From a virus (Duplodnaviria > Heunggongvirae > Uroviricota > Caudoviricetes), in IMG/VR virus record IMGVR_UViG_2690316231_000017, positions 1-10,543 of that record: a DNA stretch of 10,543 nucleotides; one strand, written 5' to 3'. Under the pieces are notes generated by a model that searched no databases, was not told where the DNA came from, and saw only the letters and a list, made by a program, of their open reading frames with translations. Of the stretch, positions 1 to 10,543 are shown in pieces (the stretch's first letter is position 1; the number at the start of each line of letters is the position of its first letter). The translations under genes and the position numbers were made by a program.

Positions 1-11
1 AGTATTAAGAC

Positions 12-31
12 TATCACTTATTTAAGTGATA
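12..31. repeat. 9-bp perfect inverted repeat (TATCACTTA-tt-TAAGTGATA) just downstream of the DUF262 ORF stop
   Basis: Read directly: plus-strand 12-20 tatcactta, 23-31 taagtgata are reverse complements. Could be a weak terminator stem or a protein-binding palindrome. Confidence 0.4.
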
Positions 32-60
32 TTGGTTGTCTGGAGATTCAGGGGGCCAGT

Positions 61-501
61 CTACTGAATGTTGTTTTGAAAGTATGGCTTAGGAGTTTCA
101 TTAACTAATTTAAAAAAAGGTCTGCCATCGTCATCCATACCAGATATATAATTATTATATATTGATTGAGCTACAGCCAACTCATTTATCAACTTAAATT
201 TATCACATAATGCTGATAACAATATAGTAAGAGTCGTAAGACGTTGTTGACCATCTACAATCATCAGCTCAGAGCTAGTTTCCTGCCCGACCAAAACGAG
301 AGCACCGATGAAATACTCATCATATTGATACTGCCCATCCTCCTGGTAATGAATATTGGAAACTATATCATGCCAAAGTTCACTTACTTGTTCCTTCCCC
401 CAAGAATATTCTCTTTGGAATCTAGGGACTATATATTTTTTATTTACAGATAACACGTTTGTTAAGGTTCGAGCATTTGCTTGCAGTTCCACTGAGGCCA
501 C
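61..501 (-). CDS. DUF262 / ParB-like nuclease-domain protein (GmrSD N-terminal-type), only 146 aa, possibly a truncated remnant
   Basis: ORF track protein contains the hallmark DGQQR motif (..MIVDGQQRLTTL..) preceded by the Y-IVP-FQREYSW segment typical of DUF262. First codon is GTG (plus-strand 499-501 = cac) with an in-frame TAG immediately upstream. After the TAG stop at 61-63, all three frames hit stops within the remaining 60 nt, so the ORF does not continue. Visibly AT-rich. Confidence 0.6.
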   Translation of the reverse strand: MASVELQANARTLTNVLSVNKKYIVPRFQREYSWGKEQVSELWHDIVSNIHYQEDGQYQYDEYFIGALVLVGQETSSELMIVDGQQRLTTLTILLSALCDKFKLINELAVAQSIYNNYISGMDDDGRPFFKLVNETPKPYFQNNIQ

Positions 502-630
502 CTACTTTAGTTGTTTGTATTACACAGTTTTATAGCATTGGAGTTTGAATGACAACCCGTTGCGCGCGCTCGTATCCCCGCCACGCCTGCCCGCTTTATG
601 TAGTGGTTTTCATGCAGGTGCATGACATAA

Positions 631-654
631 GCAAAAGCCCGCCAGTTCTGGCGG
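631..654 (-). terminator. Candidate intrinsic terminator for the minus-strand cargo operon
   Basis: GC-rich inverted repeat CCGCCAG/CTGGCGG (plus 639-645 and 648-654). On the minus strand it is followed by GCTTTTGCTT (T-tract). It lies about 150 nt downstream of the membrane-protein gene stop (802). Confidence 0.4.
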
Positions 655-663
655 ACCTCAGCA

Positions 664-683
664 AAAACGATCCTAAAACGATC
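664..683. repeat. Tandem direct repeat AAAACGATC x2 (period 11 bp), each carrying a GATC site
   Basis: Read directly: 664-672 aaaacgatc and 675-683 aaaacgatc. Sits in a GC-richer intergenic block flanked by imperfect direct repeats TTCATGCAG (609-617 and 691-699). Confidence 0.5.
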
Positions 684-801
684 ATGCGGATTCATGCAGC
701 ATAGACATGCAAAGCTTGTTAGAACGGTGATTCCCATGTTAAAGGAGGCTTACTCTTGTTGAGGTTAAACATCCACAGTAACTCCTGCCAATACGAACAC
801 T

Positions 802-1338
802 TTATTCATCATAGTGTTCTAATTTCGCTTTTGCTAAACGTCCATGTAAGTGATTAACAAAATGTAAATTACTCAAAATCAGGCTCATAACGCATTTTAA
901 TTGCATCCAGCTAATAAAGTAAATGAAGAAAATACCAATGTATTTAAACAAGTCTTTATTAGCTTGATAAACAGGTAATGCATAAAACACTGCCTTAACC
1001 AAAAAGAAAATTAGAATCCCAGCCATAACACAAGCAGATGTGATTATTGTATAAACTAATTTCTCTATTCTTGGTGAGTCATGCTCATTTTTTATATAAC
1101 TTACATCATCCTTAACAATACTATTCATTGCATTCGGATATAAAAAACCGACCCATAAACCGACAATAGTGAATATAGATGCTGAAATATTTATAAGCGC
1201 ACCTAAAATATCTTTTGCATCATTATAGGAAAAACTTTTGAACGAAAAATAGCTTATAACGCAGCACAAAACAACAGCAACAAAATTAATCGCCTGCTGT
1301 TTTGCAACTGTTATTATCAAACCTTCCGTTTCTGTCAT
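802..1338 (-). CDS. Small integral membrane protein (178 aa, about four predicted transmembrane helices); second gene of the cargo operon
   Basis: ATG at 1338 (plus 1336-1338 = cat), stop TAA at 802-804. Four long hydrophobic stretches (INFVAVVLCCVISYFSF; ILGALINISASIFTIVGLWVGFLY; LVYTIITSACVMAGILIFFLVKAVFYALPV; YIGIFFIYFISWMQLKCVMSLILSNL). GGAAGG Shine-Dalgarno about 6 nt upstream. Stop of the upstream gene and this ATG are separated by 1 nt (TGATATG). AT-rich. Confidence 0.75.
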   Translation of the reverse strand: MTETEGLIITVAKQQAINFVAVVLCCVISYFSFKSFSYNDAKDILGALINISASIFTIVGLWVGFLYPNAMNSIVKDDVSYIKNEHDSPRIEKLVYTIITSACVMAGILIFFLVKAVFYALPVYQANKDLFKYIGIFFIYFISWMQLKCVMSLILSNLHFVNHLHGRLAKAKLEHYDE

Positions 1339-1339
1339 A

Positions 1340-2539
1340 TCAACCTTCCGCTATCTTTTTTGTGGATGCAGCTTCAGATTCTTTAATGGATGCTTCCTCA
1401 GCATATTTTACTTCACTAATCAAATCATCACGAATTTTGTTTATTTCATCCAGTAAAAAACGCGCTGAATAATGCTCAAACCCATCCGAATCTTGAAGAG
1501 GAAGTTTAGTCCTGGCTACATAGCTACTGAGCCAAACCGGATTAGCACGATCAGCCAGTAAAAAACCCACATCCCATTCAGACTCTTCACCTCTCATTGA
1601 GAAGAGATTTCGAAGCTCATCCGATGATGGTGCACCGTCAATTTTAACTTCAATTTTACGAGGCTGCTCCAAAACAGGAGGTGCCCCAATAAGCTTATTA
1701 CGCTTTTCTTCACCCACCAGAGATGCTAAAGCTACACTTGTTAGCTTCAACAATGGTTGCCTTGTGTCATTTTGGTTTATTACCGTTGTATCCTTTATCA
1801 ATGTGTGTGTAATTTTATGCCTTAACCTTTCAAAGTTTTCCTCAGCGGCTTTAAGTTTTGTTTCTTCCAATACAAACTTGAAGATACAGTTTATCTCATT
1901 TTTGCCATCTTTATATTGAAACTTAGTATTGTAGACATCCACACAACGACCAGGGGTCTTAGCTGATTCAAATGTACGCTTAGATTTCGTTCTTTTACCT
2001 AACTTACTATTATTATTTACATGCTGAATGAAGTATTGTGCGAAGAGATAAGTATCAGCGAAAGAATGGGGGAATCTGATTGATGCTATTTTATTCAACT
2101 CAGGAATAATCCAGTAATAGCAGGGTTCACCCCAAATTATTTTATCCTCACCATGTTCTCTTCCCGCCCTAATGGTTCCTTTACTATCACCACTTACTTT
2201 AGAACCGACCTTAATACCATGTATTCCGTTACCGTTCCCCACTTCACGGTATAAAACAATTACTGCATCTTTAGTCTGGCTGTCCCTCACAAGGCCTCGA
2301 CTGTAAACTCGTGTTCGCAGAGGTTGTTCTTCTTTATTCCATGGGAGAGTCTGCTCAAAATTTTTATCCTTGAGCCACCCTTCTAAATCGTCCAAAACCC
2401 CCATAAGATCGCCGAATTTATAATCAAGCTCTTCGGGTTTATTCTTTAAACGATAAAACCCACAAGCAGTAATATCAAAGAAGGTGATTGAGCCGTTGTC
2501 CACTAAAACTCCTTTTTGCCAAAGCAACACACGATACAT
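1340..2539 (-). CDS. Hypothetical 399-aa soluble protein, first gene of the cargo operon; no family assignable by eye
   Basis: Long uninterrupted minus-strand ORF, ATG at 2539 (plus 2537-2539 = cat), TGA at 1340-1342. No Walker A, no RT YxDD, no obvious nuclease motif. The only motif-like element is a GDSKG (GxSxG-like) pentapeptide, which is weak. AT-rich composition contrasts with the adjacent phage backbone. Confidence 0.75.
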   Translation of the reverse strand: MYRVLLWQKGVLVDNGSITFFDITACGFYRLKNKPEELDYKFGDLMGVLDDLEGWLKDKNFEQTLPWNKEEQPLRTRVYSRGLVRDSQTKDAVIVLYREVGNGNGIHGIKVGSKVSGDSKGTIRAGREHGEDKIIWGEPCYYWIIPELNKIASIRFPHSFADTYLFAQYFIQHVNNNSKLGKRTKSKRTFESAKTPGRCVDVYNTKFQYKDGKNEINCIFKFVLEETKLKAAEENFERLRHKITHTLIKDTTVINQNDTRQPLLKLTSVALASLVGEEKRNKLIGAPPVLEQPRKIEVKIDGAPSSDELRNLFSMRGEESEWDVGFLLADRANPVWLSSYVARTKLPLQDSDGFEHYSARFLLDEINKIRDDLISEVKYAEEASIKESEAASTKKIAEG

Positions 2540-2704
2540 TTTTCACGTATACCATCAGAATCGTCCCTAAACTTCAAGTTACTTATGATAATCAAGAAAG
2601 CTGTCGAATGTTGTTGCATAGGCCAAAGTTTCAGGGGAACAAGGCATTCTTAAATCACTTTTCACTACCTGTTTCTAACGCCTCACGCGGCTCGTTGTTC
2701 AACC

Positions 2705-2739
2705 TTGCGGACGATAAAAACCAGTTTTATCGTCCGCAA
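2705..2739. repeat. Perfect palindrome: 15-bp arms with a 5-nt spacer (TTGCGGACGATAAAA-accag-TTTTATCGTCCGCAA)
   Basis: Read directly: 2705-2719 is the exact reverse complement of 2725-2739. It lies 6 nt downstream of the DinI-like stop (2746) and at the boundary where composition switches to AT-rich cargo. No U-tract follows on either strand, so it is not a canonical intrinsic terminator. Confidence 0.7.
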
Positions 2740-2745
2740 CGTTCG

Positions 2746-2979
2746 CTAGTGTAACCAGCTGTCGTCCTCCCAGACCTTCTGCATAATTTTCATCACTTGT
2801 TTTCTTTCTTCGTCCAGTTGCAGTCCGGTCAGTTCCACACCGTTAGAGCTACCTTTGCGGATACGAATTACCGTTTTGGGATACAGGGGGCGCAGATTGC
2901 GGTAAAGCTCGGATTCAAGGGCGTCCAGTGTAGACTGGCTAATCTTCTGCTCTTTATCGATCATTATTTCAATGCGCAT
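2746..2979 (-). CDS. DinI-family protein (77 aa), SOS-regulated
   Basis: Protein MRIEIMIDKEQKISQSTLDALESELYRNLRPLYPK...KIMQKVWEDDSWLH aligns by eye with E. coli DinI (MRIEV..IDALAGELSRR...WESADDW) as recalled from memory. Start refined from the ORF-track 3051 to the ATG at 2979, which has a GAGGTG Shine-Dalgarno 4 nt upstream that overlaps the TGA of the preceding gene. Confidence 0.8.
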   Translation of the reverse strand: MRIEIMIDKEQKISQSTLDALESELYRNLRPLYPKTVIRIRKGSSNGVELTGLQLDEERKQVMKIMQKVWEDDSWLH

Positions 2980-2989
2980 AAAAGTCACC

Positions 2990-3178
2990 TCAGCTGATGA
3001 CATCCATTGAGCGGTTGTATTCATGGGTTCTGATTTTTGCCATGAGTTCATCTGTCAGTTCAGAAACCCACTGCAGGGCCAGCCCCTTCTCTTCATCACT
3101 ACATTCACTAGCCGCTACAAGCTTAAGAAAAAAATCAATGCGCTGGAGCTTCAAAGACTCCAAAAAATAGTCCTGCAT
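2990..3178 (-). CDS. Small SOS-operon protein (62 aa); possible Tum-like antirepressor or unknown function
   Basis: Start refined to the ATG at 3178 (plus 3176-3178 = cat) with a strong AGGAGG Shine-Dalgarno 4 nt upstream; stop TGA at 2990-2992. First gene downstream of the LexA box. No recognisable motif. The position is analogous to the tum region of phage 186, but the size does not match my recollection of Tum (about 146 aa). Confidence 0.55.
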   Translation of the reverse strand: MQDYFLESLKLQRIDFFLKLVAASECSDEEKGLALQWVSELTDELMAKIRTHEYNRSMDVIS

Positions 3179-3220
3179 CTTTCCTCCTATGACACCAAAG
3201 CAATACTGTATACATAACAA

Positions 3221-3245
3221 CTGTTTATATTTACAGTATATAATA
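3221..3245 (-). promoter_or_regulatory. LexA (SOS) box CTGT-N8-ACAG with an overlapping candidate -10; SOS-repressed promoter of the small-protein/DinI operon
   Basis: Plus-strand 3221-3236 = ctgtttatatttacag (CTGT, 8 AT-rich nt, ACAG; palindromic). On the minus strand TATACT (3240..3235) and TATTAT (3245..3240) are -10-like hexamers abutting the box. The box lies 43-58 nt upstream of the ATG at 3178. No convincing -35 found. Confidence 0.65.
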
Positions 3246-3251
3246 ATCTTA

Positions 3252-3282
3252 CTGATGTAAAACGTTTTTTTACGTTCATCAG
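3252..3282 (-). terminator. Candidate hairpin/terminator between the gene A stop and the SOS promoter
   Basis: Inverted repeat ctgatg...catcag (3252-3257 and 3277-3282) enclosing a palindromic AAAACGTTTT-type core. On the minus strand it is followed by AT-rich sequence. Position is consistent with termination of the early operon after A. Confidence 0.3.
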
Positions 3283-3330
3283 CCTGATATGCCTGGTATT
3301 ATTAAGAGCACGAATTGTTAACCCGCGTAA

Positions 3331-5745
3331 TTAATACAGATCCCGCCACTTATCATCTTCCTGCAAACGCTGGTTCCGATAGAAGATACGCAGGCCTGCT
3401 CCTGACGGAATACTGCCACCGCGAAGGAGTAAATCGACCTCTTTCTCGCTGCCATCAAATCCTCTGGACTTCAGTTCATAGACGAGCTGCTGTCGCTGAT
3501 GATCTGTAATTCGCTGTTTGTAGTCTCTACGCCGTTTCGGTTTCACCAGGCGTAACCTTGCAGCCAGTTCCCGGCGCTCTTTTTTGTTCATACTGTGCAG
3601 GTAATCGTGCAATTCCTTGTCATCCATGCGGGTGATATCCGTTCTGGTATCCCCATCAGCTGATTTGTCTTTCCCTTGTTGGTACAAATTTTCAGCAAGG
3701 GGACAGTTATTGCCACGAGTCCAAGGGGCGCAAGCGCCCTGGTCGGCTGCCGCCTCCTGAACGTCAACGGCCTTACGAACTATTTTCCACTTCACTGCAT
3801 GAGTGCAGATCTTGCCCTCTGCAATGGGTGACCAGATGCCATAAATACGAATACCGTGATCACCATAGGCGGTCGGCTCTTCGTTGATTTCATAAGCGGT
3901 TCTGATCAAGTGATATTTGCGGGGAACCAGTACGCCGCCCTGCTTCATGATGTAGGTGGCAAAACAACCAGCATCAGCAGCAGCCAGGATGGCATCAAGG
4001 CGCGGGTTATCCAGTACCGGCGCACCTGCTTTTTTGTCACCCTGTTGCCTTGCCGCCTGACCAGCCAGCAATCGCAGTTCACGGTAAGCCTGACGCCCCG
4101 GAATGCCAAAGAAGCGGAATTGCTGAACACGATGCAGAGACGCCCAGGCATTAACGTATTCAGCGTTATCACGCAGGGATTTACCCGTTTCCTTACTGAT
4201 CTCGCCAGCCAGACCACGCCCGTCAATATTCTTACTGATATATTTCGCAATGTAGCTTGTCGGCGTTCCTTTGCGCGGGTTTATCAGCTCAGACTTAAAG
4301 CGTGGCCCCGTGTTATTGCCCAGCTCCTCGCGGTCTTCACGGATGGCAAACTTACGCAACAATGCAGTAATGGCGCGGCGGTCTTTTTTGCGCATGAAAC
4401 ACAACAGGTGCCAGTGAACTGTGCCGTCATGATGCGGCTCAGCCACCCGCACGCCATACCAGCGCAACCCGGCTTTGTGCATAGCCTTACGAAATGCAGC
4501 AAACATGCCGACCAGATAATCGCTGCTTTGTCTTACTGTCGCGTTGGTCCAGGTCGGGTTTGGCCTACCGTTATTTAGCGTGGAATGGAAACGTGACGGA
4601 CAGGTGATGGTGTAGAAAACGGCGCAGTCACCACGCATTTCCGCGATAAGCTCCAGGCCTTTAACACAGGCCATCATCTCGTTGCGGCGATGCGCCGGGT
4701 TGCTGCTGCTGGCGTTTACCACATCCTCCATGTTCAGCGTGTCGCCGTCTTCGTTCACCAGTTCATGAGAACGGAAAAACTCCAGCGACTTACGGCGCTG
4801 CTCACGTTTATGCATCACGGCTTCATAGCTGACATAGGGAGATGCTTTTTTGCTGACCAGGCAGACAGCACGCAACTGCTCTTCCCGCCATTCGCAACGC
4901 ATCTTCCATAATTTCCGATACCACCAGTCGGCGCACAGCATACGCGCCAGCGACCCCGGAATGAGTTCATAGGGCACGGGTTTACGGCGGTTTCTTTTCC
5001 GGCGGAGTTGCTCAAACGCAGGCGGTATGACATCCAGTCGCAGGGTTTCTGCTGCCACCTTTTCCCATGTCTTGCGGATTTCTTCTGGCTTAACGTCATC
5101 GGTGGCATACAAATCACCACAAGCGGCATCAAGGCACATGCTCATATGCGCAGCGACAAGGGTAGACAGGCGCTTCACCTGATCCTGACTCATTTCAGGC
5201 AGGATAAGCAGGCCATCCAGCCCTTCATGGCTTGCCATAAAGCGAAAAGAAGTGGATAGCTGACAGTCGCGGACATGCTCCAGTCGTTCCAGACATGGCT
5301 TAATCGTCTCACGCAAATAGCGGGAATAAGCCTTTGGCCTGCCCAGGCTGCTGAAATATTCAATACGTTGCATCAGCGGCTTGCTGATATGGGAAGGCTG
5401 GGCATTGACGTCAGCCAGAATGACCATGTCTGGATTAAAACGCTGCTGCTCATGCGCCAGCTTTGCCCGGCTAATGAGCTTATCCTGCTCCATTTCGCGC
5501 TGGACAGGATCACGGGATTCATTAAAGAAATAACGCTCCCAGACCTGATCACTCAGTGCCTCGCGGCGCAGTTGTTCCTGCTCGTTATCGGCAGCGTACA
5601 GAGTGATCAGGTTTGAAAGTGCAGAAACCGGCGCAACTTCCGCCGGGTCCTGATAAGGGTTAATAGCCTTTTTCGGGCTGTTCCATGAGAATGCTGCGGC
5701 GACCTCGTTAAAGCCGCTGCAGTTGTTCATATCATCATGGCTCAT
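3331..5745 (-). CDS. A: Phage replication initiation protein A (P2 gpA-like HUH rolling-circle endonuclease), 804 aa
   Basis: 804-aa minus-strand ORF with an HUH motif (HWHLL, residues 444-448) and a paired-tyrosine active-site motif SYIAKYISK (Y498 and Y502, codons at about 4252-4254 and 4240-4242), the arrangement characteristic of the P2 A-protein family. Start ATG overlaps the dam stop (ATGA). Stop TAA at 3331-3333. Confidence 0.9.
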
Positions 5746-6599
5746 GCACGCACTCCGTATACGGCTGAACTATCCACGCCACGCGAAGGATCAAATCCCA
5801 CCCAGCAGCGCGGCCCGGAAACAGCGATGATTTCAGTTGCAGATTTACTCTCACCAGCTGCTACGCCGATGCTGCGTTTTGCCTTGATGTAGTGGTGAGT
5901 AAAATTGCGATACAGCGAACGGATCAGGGATGTGTCACTGTTAGAAACAATGACCGGATGTCCTTCTGATGACCGATGTTCAAGCACAGATGCCAGGCGA
6001 TACTGGTCATCTTCAGTGAAGCCATCAGTGTGATAGCCGGAAAACGTACCGTCATAAGGCGGATCGCAATACACAACATCCCCCGCGTGCAACATCGCCA
6101 GCGTTTCATCGAAGCTGGCGCAGATAAACGTTGCCCGCTGGGCTTTCTCTGCAAATGCGCGAATTTCTTTTTCAGGGAAATACGGATTTTTATAATTACC
6201 GTAGGGAATGTTGAAATGCCCGCTCTTGTTATAGCGACATAACCCACGGTAACCATGTCGATTGAGATACAGGAAATATACCGCTTTCATGAAATTAGTA
6301 ATTTCAGTTGAGTAGTTAAACTCCTGCCTTATGTTGTAATAAGCCACCTCCCTGTTTGCTTCCTCAAATAAAACTCTGGCGCGAGATATAAATAATTCAC
6401 AATCAGCGGCAACCTTTTTATAGAGGTTGATTAAATCAGGATTAATATCCGCAACCAGATAGCTGGGGTAATCCGTTTCCATCATCACTGCACAGGAACC
6501 CGCGAAAGGTTCAACCAGTCGCAGGCCAGCAGGAAGGTGTTTTTTCAGTTCTGGCATAATGGCGGTTTTATTTCCCGCCCATTTCAGGATGGTGCTCAT
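5742..6599 (-). CDS. dam: Dam-family DNA N6-adenine methyltransferase (GATC-specific type predicted)
   Basis: Protein shows the conserved Dam blocks as recalled for E. coli Dam: [41 protein letters not shown], and the catalytic DPPY motif ([10 protein letters not shown]). Start ATG overlaps the TraR-like stop (ATGA); stop overlaps the A start. Confidence 0.9.
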
Positions 6600-6823
6600 A
6601 CAGCACCTCCGTTGTAATGTTTACCTTTCAGCTCTGCGATTTCCTGACAGGTAATGCAAAGCTGCACTCCCGGAATGGCGCGGCGGCGTGCTGGCGGAAT
6701 TGGCGCTTCACACTCTATGCAAAGCACGCGAGACACGCCCGGTGTTTTGGCACGGGCAGCACGGATGTGGCGCTGGCGTTCTTCTTCAACGCGCTGCTGT
6801 ACGAGATCCATTGCATCAGCCAT
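6596..6823 (-). CDS. TraR/DksA-family C4 zinc-finger protein (75 aa)
   Basis: LCIECEAPIPPARRRAIPGVQLCITCQ...KHY matches the C-x2-C...C-x2-C finger and flanking residues of F-plasmid TraR as recalled (CEACGNPIPEARRKIFPGVTLCVECQ). ATG at 6823 overlaps the upstream stop (ATGA). Confidence 0.8.
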   Translation of the reverse strand: MADAMDLVQQRVEEERQRHIRAARAKTPGVSRVLCIECEAPIPPARRRAIPGVQLCITCQEIAELKGKHYNGGAV

Positions 6824-7056
6824 CAGTGGATCTCCTGCGCTTCGTTCTGGATTGCTTCAGCAGTCACACGCAGCAGTTCTGCCGCTTCGACGTGGTTTAG
6901 TTGGCGGGATGTGATATGACACGCCAGGCTATCAAGGCGAGCTGCCATTGCTTCAGCCCTTGCCCGGCGTTCTTCCAGACGAGCCTCTGTCAGTAAAATA
7001 TTAAGCCCTGCATCATCCGGTCCGGTTTTAGTCGTGAGGGTTTCAATATTACGCAT
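6823..7056 (-). CDS. Hypothetical small protein (77 aa) of the early lytic operon
   Basis: The ORF-track start at 7062 is a TTG; the first ATG is at 7056, with an AGGAGA Shine-Dalgarno about 8 nt upstream. Backbone-like GC content. Stop overlaps the TraR-like start. Confidence 0.55.
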   Translation of the reverse strand: MRNIETLTTKTGPDDAGLNILLTEARLEERRARAEAMAARLDSLACHITSRQLNHVEAAELLRVTAEAIQNEAQEIH

Positions 7057-7123
7057 AATCAATTCTCCTGAATTTAGATAAAGGGATGCCCGGCGGGTTT
7101 ACGCCATTAATTTCATTAGTTGG

Positions 7124-7465
7124 TTAATTCGGCATGGTTAGCCGTCTGGGAAATAAGCTCACCACTGCACGAAAATGATTCATTGCTTTAATCAACTCCC
7201 GCTTTTCGTCAGTGGTCAGCTCATTAATGCTGATGCTATGACGTTCAGCTGGAATTTTTGCCATAAAGAATATGGCAGCCAGTGCCCTTTTATTTTGTTC
7301 ATTATTGATATCCCATGGATCACGCATATCTTTAATAAACCGCTCAAGCTCTGACTCAATATTTAGGCCAAAAACTTTCGCCCTTAACTCCGCAATGTGA
7401 TTAAGTCCATTCAGGCGTTCACCGGGGCTTAATGGAACAGTCGCCGCAGTGCCTTCAATAGCCAT
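7124..7465 (-). CDS. Hypothetical protein (113 aa) of the early lytic operon
   Basis: ATG at 7465 with a GGGGGA Shine-Dalgarno-like element 5 nt upstream. Overlaps the 3' end of the upstream small ORF by 37 nt in another frame. No recognisable motif. Confidence 0.5.
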   Translation of the reverse strand: MAIEGTAATVPLSPGERLNGLNHIAELRAKVFGLNIESELERFIKDMRDPWDINNEQNKRALAAIFFMAKIPAERHSISINELTTDEKRELIKAMNHFRAVVSLFPRRLTMPN

Positions 7466-7629
7466 TTGTTCCCCCGTTTTTTCGTAGATAGTTCTGCCAG
7501 CAATTCATCTTGTGAACGGCACGGATGCCAGCGTTTACCATCCTCCCCCATGATCCAGCCGTGACCGTAATGCATTGCCGGGCTTTGTTTAACCAGCAGC
7601 GATGCAAATGATGGTTCTTTCGTCAGCAT
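7429..7629 (-). CDS. Hypothetical small protein (66 aa); positionally analogous to the post-cII small genes of phage 186
   Basis: Start refined from the ORF-track 7659 to the ATG at 7629, which has a GAGGTG Shine-Dalgarno overlapping the cII-like stop codon (TGA at 7637-7639). Identity not established. Confidence 0.45.
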   Translation of the reverse strand: MLTKEPSFASLLVKQSPAMHYGHGWIMGEDGKRWHPCRSQDELLAELSTKKRGNKWLLKALRRLFH

Positions 7630-7636
7630 AAGCACC

Positions 7637-8146
7637 TCACAGCAAACCAAATGAAGCACCGAGGCCAGTCACGGTATCAACTGCACTCGCCATCGCAGGA
7701 TTAGCCTGTAAACGGGCCTGCAATGAAACAGCCGCCAGCGCCATCAGTCGTGTTACAGAGTTAATGCTACTGATAGCATCACGACGACCGGCACAGGTTT
7801 TTACATCGCCAGACACCGCACCTGCAGCAACACGCCCGATCTCTGCGGTTGCACTCATGACGTAATGTGGCAGTTTCTCTTTTGCCACCTCATTAATCGG
7901 TACACATGGCAGACAATGAATCTGTGCCAGAAAACCATCTACCAGCGTTGAATCTTCAGTCAGATCGGTAAGCAGCCAGATTTCTGGTGCGGTTAATAAA
8001 TGAGGCTGAGCTGGGTTCAGCTTGTTCCGCAGAATCTGCACATTCATGCCTGCACGTTCTGCCAGTTGCACCAGATTGTGGCGCAGTGCAAATGCACGAC
8101 AGGCTTCATCAAAATGTGGATGTTTGGAAACTTGGTAATCAAACAT
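7637..8146 (-). CDS. cII: Phage 186 CII-like transcriptional regulator (169 aa)
   Basis: The ORF-track start is a TTG; the ATG two codons in (8146) gives a 169-aa protein, the length I recall for 186 CII. It sits immediately downstream of the excisionase-like gene, as in 186 (apl-cII). AGAGG Shine-Dalgarno about 8 nt upstream. Assignment rests on position, size and recollection, not on an alignment. Confidence 0.6.
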
Positions 8147-8178
8147 GGTCAATGCCTCTGATGTATTTCAGAATCGAA

Positions 8179-8400
8179 CTAATTAAGGTTTAGATTGCAT
8201 TCTGAAAGCGCATCAACGGTCATTGCTGCTATGTTGATCATCACTTTTTCGCGTTTTTTATCTTTGCGCAGACGGTGACGGATAAGGCGTCCATCAGCCA
8301 ACATGTCATTGATGGTATCGATGGATAGCCCTGTCAGCTCGCTATAGCGTTCAATAGTCACATGAGGCGTGGTAAGAGTGATTGAAATGTTAGGTCTCAT
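8179..8400 (-). CDS. Apl/Cox-like excisionase / early-promoter regulator (73 aa)
   Basis: First gene of the leftward operon, diverging from the repressor gene. Small basic protein with a helix-turn-helix-like segment ([21 protein letters not shown]). ATG at 8400 with a GAGGA Shine-Dalgarno upstream. Confidence 0.55.
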
Positions 8401-8472
8401 GATGCAACATTCCTCGTTTAATGATGATTAATCAGGACGAATACGGATCGTTTGTATTTTGTGAACACCATA

Positions 8473-8501
8473 AACATACGATCGCACAGTGAAATCGTCA
8501 A
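8473..8501 (-). promoter_or_regulatory. Candidate lytic (pR-like) sigma70 promoter for the apl/cII operon
   Basis: Minus-strand -35 TTGACG (plus 8501..8496), 17-nt spacer, -10 TATGTT (plus 8478..8473); predicted start about 65 nt upstream of the apl-like ATG. The switch region also holds direct repeats ATACGGATCG (8441-8450) and ATACGATCG (8476-8484) and inverted GTGAAC (8461-8466) / GTTCAC (8509-8514) motifs as candidate operators. Confidence 0.4.
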
Positions 8502-8525
8502 GATAAAAGTTCACTTGGAGTGACC

Positions 8526-9095
8526 ATGAATTTGGAGAAAGGCGGACGAGGCGCCATAGAGCGCATGGTAGAAGCTTATGGATTCAAGACTCGACAGGCG
8601 TTGTGCGATCATTTAGGAATCTCTAAAAGTACACTCGCCACACGCTACATGCGTGACTCATTCCCAGCAGAATGGGTAATCCAGTGCGCCCTTGAAACAG
8701 GCACCTCGCTTAATTGGCTCACAACCGGGCATGGTTCAAAGCAAACTTCAGGTAATACAAATACTATGGAAGTTGCTAAATATGTATTATCTGATGGGGC
8801 CTTGTGTGAAGACGGTTTTTATATTTTCGATAGAGAATTTCTACCGTCGGCATTCAAGAATCTTTTTGTAATCACAGATAATAATTCTGAATTTATTTGT
8901 GATAAGGAATTTGATGATATACGTGATGGTAAATGGGTAATAAGTATTGATGGCGAAATAACGATCCGTGACATTACTCGTTTACCCGGTGGAAGAATCT
9001 TCGTCGAGGGTGGAAACAGAGCCTTCGAATGTAAGATAGAAGACATTGAAATAATTGGTAAAATTATAAGTTTAACAGTCAAGTATGTTAAATAG
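8526..9095 (+). CDS. cI: Phage 186 CI-like immunity repressor (189 aa)
   Basis: The ORF-track start at 8520 is a GTG; the ATG at 8526 has a GGAG Shine-Dalgarno 5 nt upstream. N-terminal DNA-binding region (EAYGFKTRQALCDHLGISKSTLATRYMRD...CALETGTSLNWLTTGHG) plus a C-terminal domain. Divergent from the apl-like gene and upstream of int, as in 186. Stop TAG at 9093-9095. Confidence 0.7.
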   Translation: MNLEKGGRGAIERMVEAYGFKTRQALCDHLGISKSTLATRYMRDSFPAEWVIQCALETGTSLNWLTTGHGSKQTSGNTNTMEVAKYVLSDGALCEDGFYIFDREFLPSAFKNLFVITDNNSEFICDKEFDDIRDGKWVISIDGEITIRDITRLPGGRIFVEGGNRAFECKIEDIEIIGKIISLTVKYVK

Positions 9096-9110
9096 TACCG
9101 GGAGGAAATT

Positions 9111-9302
9111 ATGCTTGGTAAGGTATTTTTTGTGGTTTTGTCATGTTCTTTGTTATTAAACCCACTAGCTACCTATGCTAGAAATTATCCCTGCTCAGGG
9201 AAAAAGGGAGGTGTTTCTCACTGTACCTCTGATGGCAAATTCGTTTGCAATGATGGAACTATTAGTAAATCCAAAAAAATCTGTACTAAAAACTCACGAT
9301 AA
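9111..9302 (+). CDS. Small secreted Cys-containing, Lys-rich peptide (63 aa precursor) between cI and int; candidate moron
   Basis: Strong GGAGG Shine-Dalgarno (9101-9105) 5 nt before the ATG at 9111. N-terminal signal-peptide-like sequence ([23 protein letters not shown]) with no lipobox, then an approximately 40-aa mature part with four Cys and many Lys/Gly/Ser. AT-rich. Confidence 0.55.
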
Positions 9303-9437
9303 CTTTTGCTTTTATATCTGCGCCTAAAATAAAAATGAGCCACAGGTTAACCGCAAAAGTTACATGATCACATAGCAAAAAGAATAGCCTACTTCATTAT
9401 GGCTTCAGTGAGATGTATGGTCGCAGGATTTCATACA

Positions 9438-9466
9438 TTGACACTGGTTATACATACAGTAAAAAT
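9438..9466 (+). promoter_or_regulatory. Candidate sigma70 promoter immediately upstream of int
   Basis: Perfect -35 TTGACA at 9438-9443, 17-nt spacer, -10-like AAAAAT at 9461-9466, followed by a GGAGG Shine-Dalgarno (9477-9481) and the int ATG at 9491. Confidence 0.3.
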
Positions 9467-9490
9467 GCTCTCTATTGGAGGGCATTTTTT

Positions 9491-10543
9491 ATGGCTGTAC
9501 GAAAACTCACCACAGGAAAATGGCTTTGCGAATGTTACCCCGCCGGACGTAGTGGGCGTCGTGTGCGTAAACAATTCGCCACCAAAGGCGAAGCACTGGC
9601 TTTTGAGCGTCACACGATGGAAGAAACCGAAGCAAAGCCCTGGCTAGGTGAATCAGTGGATCGTCGAACACTGAAAGACGTGGTTGAGCTATGGTTCAAA
9701 CTACATGGTAAATCACTGACTGCTGGGCAGCATGTCTATGACAAATTGCTGCTGATGGTTGACGCTCTGGGCAATCCCCCTGCAACTGATCTAACCTCTA
9801 AAATGTTTGCCCACTATCGAGATAAACGCCTGACAGGTGAGATCTACTTCAGCGAGAAATGGAAGAAAGGAGCAAGCCCGGTCACCATTAATCTGGAGCA
9901 AAGCTATCTAAGTAGTGTTTTTAGCGAACTATCCCGCCTGGGCGAATGGTCGTATCCGAACCCACTGGAGAACATGCGAAAATTCACCATCGCAGAAAAA
10001 GAGATGGCATGGCTTACCCATGAGCAGATTGTTGAATTACTGGCTGATTGCAAACGTCAGGACCCAATTCTGGCACTGGTAGTTAAGATATGCTTAAGCA
10101 CAGGCGCACGCTGGCGAGAAGCCGTAAATCTTACTCGTTCACAGGTGACCAAATACCGAATTACCTTTGTAAGAACGAAGGGGAAGAAAAACAGAAGCAT
10201 CCCTATCAGTAAAGAGCTTTACGAAGAGATCATGGCGCTTGATGGGTTCAATTTCTTCACAGACTGCTATTTTCAATTTTTATCCGTGATGGAAAAAACG
10301 TCTATCGTGCTCCCTCGCGGTCAACTCACACACGTTCTGCGCCATACGTTTGCGGCGCACTTCATGATGTCGGGTGGAAACATTCTGGCCTTACAAAAAA
10401 TTCTCGGACACCACGATATAAAAATGACTATGCGTTACGCACATCTGGCACCGGATCATCTGGAAACGGCGCTCCGTTTCAATCCTCTGGCAACGCTGCC
10501 AAGTGGCGACAAAGTGGCGGCAGCGGTTGGCATTACCCCGTAA
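9491..10543 (+). CDS. int: P2-type tyrosine integrase (site-specific recombinase), 350 aa
   Basis: Start refined from the ORF-track 9413 to the ATG at 9491 (MAVRKLTTGKW..), based on resemblance to the P2 Int N-terminus as recalled and on the upstream Shine-Dalgarno. Conserved catalytic blocks LSTGARWREA, HVLRHTFAAHF and MRYAHL (catalytic Tyr). Stop TAA at 10541-10543, so the gene is complete; attP would lie beyond the window. Confidence 0.9.
   Translation: MAVRKLTTGKWLCECYPAGRSGRRVRKQFATKGEALAFERHTMEETEAKPWLGESVDRRTLKDVVELWFKLHGKSLTAGQHVYDKLLLMVDALGNPPATDLTSKMFAHYRDKRLTGEIYFSEKWKKGASPVTINLEQSYLSSVFSELSRLGEWSYPNPLENMRKFTIAEKEMAWLTHEQIVELLADCKRQDPILALVVKICLSTGARWREAVNLTRSQVTKYRITFVRTKGKKNRSIPISKELYEEIMALDGFNFFTDCYFQFLSVMEKTSIVLPRGQLTHVLRHTFAAHFMMSGGNILALQKILGHHDIKMTMRYAHLAPDHLETALRFNPLATLPSGDKVAAAVGITP

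Follow-up and report, generated by a model that had tools for sequence, protein, structure and literature searches.

A short DUF262 open reading frame in a P2/186-like Escherichia coli prophage is very likely the 5' quarter of a GmrSD-like gene interrupted by IS2

We analysed a window of 10,543 nucleotides, positions 1 to 10,543 of the virus record IMGVR_UViG_2690316231_000017, which carries a short open reading frame (ORF) of the DUF262 type close to its left edge. Very likely, the ORF represents codons 1-143 of 581, or the 5' quarter, of a HEC-06-type, GmrSD-like gene into which IS2 inserted; the gene occupies the cos-portal slot of a P2/186-like prophage. We see in the ORF an ordinary broken gene of a known family in a known hotspot and no new small defence protein, and its 143-aa product is already present in the databases as WP_162775841.1.

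In the ORF listing of the window, the short ORF occupies positions 61-501 of the minus strand and encodes 146 aa from a GTG at 499-501, with an in-frame TAG immediately before it at 502-504; stop codons occur in all three frames inside the 60 nt past its own stop. The length, the GTG after the in-frame TAG and the three-frame stops had all been reported by a sequence-only reading of the window, and each is there in the sequence. The same reading had assigned the ORF to DUF262 by its DGQQR signature, and profile searches upheld this assignment. The 146-aa product matched Pfam GmrSD_N (PF03235, DUF262) with E=5.4e-26 and 92 bits at a cut-off of 33 bits, far beyond chance. The match spans only profile positions 3-78 out of 199, and the Pfam search gave no GmrSD_C (DUF1524) match in the short ORF. 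The motif set of DUF262 comprises QR, DGQQR and FxxxN (bioRxiv 10.1101/2024.04.04.588119). DGQQR is the nucleotide-hydrolysis motif. The first two motifs are present (Table 1); the ORF ends at residue 143 and FxxxN is absent from the fragment.

A second GTG at 490-492 has a Shine-Dalgarno-like sequence, AGGTGG, 5 nt upstream and yields a 143-aa product, to which the start at 499-501 would add three codons. The second GTG is more likely to be the start because of the AGGTGG upstream, because PGAP places the start of the intact homologue in strain MB51 at the equivalent GTG, and because the NCBI entry WP_162775841.1 / CTY96146.1, labelled 'DUF262 domain-containing protein', is the 143-aa version of the ORF. 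An exact-product look-up found 10 contigs that encode the 143-aa version and nothing on record for the 146-aa version. On the coding strand between cos and the gene start, a promoter scan found no sigma-70-like site. No Rfam family reached its gathering score anywhere in the window.

The sequence that follows the short ORF was identified as the end of an insertion sequence. Megablast of window positions 1-2700 against complete E. coli genomes gave several matches to 64-711 at ~98% under the annotation 'DUF262 domain-containing protein', and the homology to these genomes begins exactly one base past the stop codon of the short ORF. In strain DSM 103246, window positions 1-63 matched right beside an IS2 family transposase annotation. 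The matching bases (L003:5001-5063, where L003 denotes this locus in NZ_CP019944.1) are the end of a 1,331-bp element at L003:3733-5063, which is annotated 'IS3-like element IS2 family transposase' and is flanked by a 5-bp duplication, TACCC. Three-way alignment of the window with the MB51 and L003 sequences put the breakpoint precisely at the boundary of window bases 63 and 64, where the intact MB51 allele reads ...AAC AAC ATT CAG CAT ATT GAT AAG... versus ...AAC AAC ATT CAG TAG ACT GGC CCC... in the window. The element has the same orientation as the gene that it interrupts. With IS2 inserted at this position, its terminal TAG is in frame and stops translation; the short ORF ends early because of this in-frame TAG of the IS2 terminal repeat, and the region with stops in all frames past the ORF is likewise due to the IS2 end. 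The IS2 identity of bases 1-63 had been missed in the sequence-only reading and is added here. Alignment with the full-length MB51 gene, a check of the kind proposed in that reading, put the end of the homology at residue 143, at the same 63/64 breakpoint.

Table 1. Features of the window around the short DUF262 ORF, the IS2 junction and cos.
Feature	Position in window	Strand	Basis or remark
Terminal 63 bases of IS2, left inverted-repeat end	1..63	-	63/63 identical to L003:5001-5063; minus strand reads TAGACTGGCCCCCTGAATCTCCAGACAACC...
TAG stop codon of the short ORF	61..63	-	First three bases of the IS2 terminal repeat, in frame
Predicted IS2 target site TTCAG (coding strand)	64..68	-	Inferred from the 63/64 breakpoint and the 5-bp duplication of the L003 IS2
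5' 429 nt (codons 1-143 of 581) of a GmrSD-like DUF262-DUF1524, HEC-06-type gene	64..492	-	Identity to MB51
DGQQR motif, residues 80-84 counted from the GTG at 492	241..255	-	Sequence
First DUF262 motif F-QR (FQR), residues 25-27	412..420	-	Motif set from bioRxiv 10.1101/2024.04.04.588119
Prophage cos site, 19-nt cohesive-end sequence GGCGTGGCGGGGATACGAG	569..587	-	Alignment to the P2 cos region

The uninterrupted form of the gene is found in strain MB51 (L001:4684-6429, minus strand), where it measures 1,746 nt and encodes a protein of 581 aa, WP_000422658.1. Window positions 64-501 align to this gene with 0 mismatches over 438 nt, and 143 of 143 residues are identical. Six complete E. coli genomes carry the gene, each with an intact allele of 1,746 nt. 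Since the 438 retained nucleotides have no mismatch to MB51, the insertion is recent and the fragment undecayed. The sequence-only reading had offered a decayed defence-gene remnant in a hotspot as one explanation. The truncation was confirmed, the intact allele being 581 aa with DUF262 and DUF1524; the decay was not, given 438 nt of 100% identity.

The MB51 protein contains GmrSD_N at residues 12-242 (profile positions 3-199 of 199) and GmrSD_C/DUF1524 at 454-567. The third DUF262 motif, in the form FETLN, is located at 221-225 and an EH motif at 490-491; both are missing from the window fragment, which retains only the first ~40% of the DUF262 domain and is devoid of the nuclease. When compared with the PADLOC profiles, the MB51 protein matched three HEC-06 profiles end to end with E=1e-89 to 7e-84; the short ORF matched HEC-06 with E=4e-31, over profile positions ~4-142 of ~560 only. 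The anti-phage activity of HEC-06 (Hma-embedded candidate 06), a GmrSD-like defence that consists of a single protein, has been validated by experiment, and each of the mutations Q79A and R80A in DGQQR and E471A and H472A in the HNH motif abolishes it (Payne et al., bioRxiv 10.1101/2024.01.29.577857). The label HEC-06 is softer than 'GmrSD-like DUF262-DUF1524' because the PADLOC 'Orf5' profiles also match the MB51 protein strongly (E=4e-77); SspE and mREase_IV profiles match it more weakly. Over the part that is present, the short ORF shows homology to the family by Pfam GmrSD_N, by PADLOC HEC-06 and by identity at 143 of 143 residues to WP_000422658.1. Judged by its sequence, the window ORF is a fragment of the GmrSD-like family and not a functional member of it.

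Relatives of the gene are of uniform architecture. The best 120 of 2,494 homologues are all 522-629 aa long and all have both domains, and their hosts range from Enterobacteriaceae through to cyanobacteria. The expectation that intact DUF262 relatives are longer and carry DUF1524 was thus borne out, both by this size range and by the 581 aa of the intact allele. Among the same best 120 of 2,494 there is no short stand-alone family, and the short members of the clusters are contig-edge 'partial' fragments of assorted lengths.

These data bear on the idea that the ORF encodes a stand-alone or split-system DUF262-only protein whose partner lies to the left, like TgvA of TgvAB. TgvAB is a two-protein GmrSD-like system in which the DUF262-only TgvA works together with a DUF262-DUF1524 partner (bioRxiv 10.1101/2024.04.04.588119), so that partners of this kind do exist; the ORF also has a start codon, an SD-like sequence and the QR and DGQQR motifs, and NCBI lists its product as a protein (WP_162775841.1). 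We nevertheless regard this reading as extremely improbable. The ORF stops at Pfam position 78 of 199, inside the domain and before FxxxN (221-225 in the intact allele), its stop codon belongs to IS2 and the sequence downstream is IS2. In addition, the product shows 100% identity to residues 1-143 of a 581-aa protein, whose gene is collinear with the ORF. The sequence-only proposal of a first gene of a split system with its partner beyond the left edge therefore fails, as IS2 lies beyond the stop and the domain ends at profile position 78 of 199 without FxxxN. A complete and conserved stand-alone family of 146 aa, which that reading had named as the outcome that would speak against truncation, finds no counterpart among the best 120 of 2,494 homologues.

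The left edge of the window coincides with the end of a draft contig. In reverse complement, the window corresponds to the end of contig CYFT01000012.1 (L004, GCA_001285945.1) with 0 mismatches over 10,492 bases, and window and contig end at the same base, 63 bases into IS2. The left edge of the window is thus a break of the short-read source assembly inside the multicopy IS2 repeat, past which this contig has no further sequence. The junction between gene and IS2 is present, base for base the same, in this isolate assembly (L004), in a Logan assembly (L005) and in two ENA metagenomes (L006 and L008); an exact scan of genome_contigs for the junction returned 0 matches. In L006, the IS ORFs that follow the junction carry HTH_Tnp_1 and HTH_21/rve domains, and this contig is possibly chimeric beyond the IS.

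Partial proteins in NCBI meet at the same point. A 438-aa 'partial' protein starts with HIDKRNEG... at H144, right after ...FQNNIQ (143 + 438 = 581), and a 142-aa 'partial' protein ends with ...FQNNI at I142. These two entries show that in other assemblies, too, the gene is broken at this codon, with its 3' part retained. A sequencing or assembly artefact, in which the stop at 61-63 or the IS2 junction would be erroneous and the gene intact in the real genome, has to be considered here, as the junction is located 63 bases from the end of a draft contig and repeat ends can be misjoined. The recurrence of an identical junction in at least four independent data sets (L004, L005, L006 and L008), the 10 contigs that encode the 143-aa product and the NCBI partial proteins that break at the same codon in other assemblies leave an artefact next to no likelihood. 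A nonsense or frameshift error near 61-63, for which the sequence-only reading had suggested a check of the reads, is likewise discounted, since the TAG is the terminus of IS2 and the junction recurs in independent data.

Many other contig-edge 'partial' fragments of the 581-aa protein are deposited in NCBI; those from the N-terminus measure 82-251 aa and those from the C-terminus 299-530 aa. Certain lengths are shared by several assemblies, such as 102 aa, which occurs on 6 contigs. The fragments could stem from further IS insertions or, the gene having 34% GC, from gaps in coverage.

For the far side of the element, we infer that the 3' 438 codons persist beyond IS2 in the source strain. The target site TTCAG would be duplicated at the far end of IS2, outside the window, and the far junction of a simple insertion would read ...GGGGCAAATCCA-TTCAG-CATATTGATAAGAG..., also given as ...ATAGGGGCAAATCCA/TTCAG/CATATTGATAAGAGAAATGAAGG.... 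Exact scans of genome_contigs and metagenome_contigs for this predicted junction (IS2 IRR, 5 nt and the continuation of the gene) gave 0 matches; the collections scanned, with a single genome for each species or with JGI metagenomes, probably do not include the source strain.

An alternative is that the IS2 insertion was followed by an IS-mediated adjacent deletion or rearrangement, in which the 3' 438 codons and possibly the portal gene were lost, making this a defective prophage end. Such a history would account for the far junction not being found in the two collection scans, and it would fit the L006 contig (ENA ERZ27246658 k141_7670), which runs from the same junction across IS2 into unrelated sequence. 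At 1902-2433 of L006, past IS2, there is a repeat-rich adhesin or autotransporter-like coding sequence, without the 5-bp target duplication. L006 is, however, a k141 metagenome contig whose IS2 differs from the L003 copy at 58 positions, as is typical of a chimeric repeat path, and it is probably a chimeric metagenome path through the multicopy IS2. L006 was considered as a read-across of IS2 and was set aside, its far flank being unrelated and adhesin-like and lacking a target duplication. The scanned collections would hardly be expected to contain the source strain, and the 438-aa NCBI partial protein that starts right after the junction indicates that the 3' part is kept in some carriers at least. 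Loss of the 3' part by a subsequent deletion is on these grounds unlikely, and a simple insertion remains our preferred reading.

Another ENA metagenome contig (L007, ERZ27233475 k141_276769) was observed to end near the same position. In its bases 1-936, DinI directly adjoins the DUF262 gene as in MB51. The last base of the contig, a C as in the intact allele, is the first one beyond the IS2 insertion point. The break may reflect a branch between intact and IS2-bearing alleles in one sample.

By analogy with HEC-06, BrxU, SspE and GmrSD, the intact protein would act as a single polypeptide, a modification-dependent type IV-like restriction or anti-phage enzyme. Its N-terminal DUF262 NTPase/sensor (QR, DGQQR, FxxxN) would control the C-terminal DUF1524 His-Me (HNH) nuclease, and the nuclease would cut the DNA of the invading phage. 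In the IS2-truncated copy this defence function is predicted to be lost, because the fragment is without the third DUF262 motif and without the whole nuclease.

The window covers the early region of a P2/186-like E. coli prophage, with genes for an integrase, a CI-like repressor, a CII-like protein, a Dam-type methylase, gpA (Pfam E=4e-127) and a DinI-like protein; the first three were assigned from domains in the gene table of L004. The gene order is gpA, DinI, the genes for a 399-aa and a 178-aa protein, cos, the DUF262 gene with its IS2 and then the portal gene, which is outside the window. In MB51 the intact gene is located between the portal gene and the DinI-like gene of a P2-like prophage, with the portal gene immediately beyond it. 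The cos site lies 77 nt upstream of the start of the DUF262 gene, which puts the gene in the cos-to-portal slot, and window positions 575-616 align at 34 of 42 bases to the P2 region with the annotated cosR/cosL sequence GGCGAGGCGGGGAAAGCAC. P2-like phages of Escherichia, Klebsiella, Yersinia and Salmonella share a conserved element that surrounds cos, at ~553-714 of the window. This element was considered as a mobile repeat or an RNA and rejected as such, being the phage cos region without an Rfam match in the window. A first megablast search had matched 7,551 records because of the cos element at 553-714 and the IS2 end at 1-63.

The cos-proximal gpA-gpQ interval of P2-like prophages is a defence hotspot (Rousset et al. 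2022, PMC9122126). The DUF262 gene is positioned within such an interval, between gpA and the portal gene and next to cos, with the portal side seen in MB51. The neighbouring cargo consists of defence candidates, namely PDC-M18 in the window, AbiU/AIPR in a related locus (L002) and a HEPN protein in L003.

Several further observations concern the sequence on both sides of cos. A two-gene cassette on the minus strand (802-1338 and 1340-2539) occupies the old/tin position, between DinI and cos, and encodes a hydrophobic protein of 178 aa and a protein of 399 aa (called 387 aa elsewhere). Neither protein had a Pfam match; the cassette matched the PADLOC candidate system PDC-M18 (B: E=3e-18; A: E=6e-31). 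A mosaic joint was noticed at ~570-625. Window positions 64-625 are identical to MB51, in which the cargo is DUF262 and the 399/178-aa cassette is not present, and window positions 570-900 are nearly identical to ECCWS199, which has AbiU/AIPR instead of DUF262 and does have the cassette. A crossover within cos or next to it thus seems to have brought the left-end and right-end cargo modules together. The DinI-like ORF (2746-3051, minus strand) is 101 aa by the longest-ORF rule and is annotated as 77 aa in related genomes. Upstream of it, a small ORF at 2990-3220 (minus strand), 62 aa as annotated, had no family match.

A parallel case is provided by DSM 103246. At L003 2084-5160, a DUF262-DUF1524 allele of 54% identity is split at about codon 32 by a second IS2, which has the same orientation. 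An ORF of 579 codons is restored when IS2 and one TACCC copy are taken out, and the 54%-identical allele is intact in three other complete genomes. At this locus PGAP calls a 561-aa 'DUF262 domain-containing protein' with its start codon inside the right end of IS2, and the disruption is not flagged.

That a rare gene family was hit twice independently by IS2, in the same orientation each time, is suggestive of recurrent inactivation; such small numbers do not allow a claim of selection. The basis for recurrence is two alleles, each in a handful of complete genomes, and the many contig-edge fragments in NCBI. A more far-reaching proposal would be that IS2 disruption of cos-portal GmrSD-like genes is both recurrent and selected as an off-switch for a costly or self-toxic nuclease, with the N-terminal fragment or an IS2-driven 3' part having a regulatory or dominant-negative role. 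We consider this very unlikely.

The biological weight of the finding is small. It adds one more IS knock-out of a prophage defence gene, in a hotspot and a family that have both already been described. It has a practical side for annotation: where a contig edge carries a short ORF with a strong defence-domain signature, a search for IS termini should come first. WP_162775841.1 is at present carried as an ordinary protein with no flag as a pseudogene fragment. The locus also illustrates that P2-like phages bear cargo on both sides of cos.

Among known systems, HEC-06 shares with the intact allele the architecture of DUF262, linker and DUF1524, together with the end-to-end PADLOC profile match. 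The DGQQR of the allele at residues 80-84 and its EH(I) at 490-491 compare with the mutated HEC-06 positions Q79/R80 and E471/H472. The assignment to HEC-06 comes from PADLOC profiles, and the 'Orf5' profiles match strongly as well. The window copy differs from HEC-06 in consisting of residues 1-143 only and ending at IS2, and its setting is the cos-portal slot of a P2-like prophage, in contrast to the Hma system for HEC-06. With GmrSD, BrxU and SspE, the intact allele has in common the presence of GmrSD_N and GmrSD_C. Matches to the sequences of solved structures were modest, weak but significant, with E=1e-12 for 9jfl (a DUF262 protein) and E=4e-4 for SspE (6jiv); BrxU was absent from these matches at E<=0.01. 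The similarity to SspE is limited to the first ~100 residues of the intact allele, and the window copy differs from all three systems in being without the nuclease. TgvA of TgvAB has a complete DUF262 domain with three motifs, whereas the window ORF stops inside the domain and is followed by an IS and by no partner gene. The case resembles inactivation by IS2 (IS3 family) in its 63 identical terminal bases, with the parallel L003 insertion having the 5-bp duplication, and differs in that the window contains one end of the element and not the other. Compared with the P2 hotspot, the gene is likewise located between gpA/DinI and the portal gene, next to cos. In P2 itself, the cos-to-Q interval is only ~170 bp and old and tin are on the gpA side of cos, whereas the DUF262 gene here lies on the portal side, at the left end of the packaged genome.
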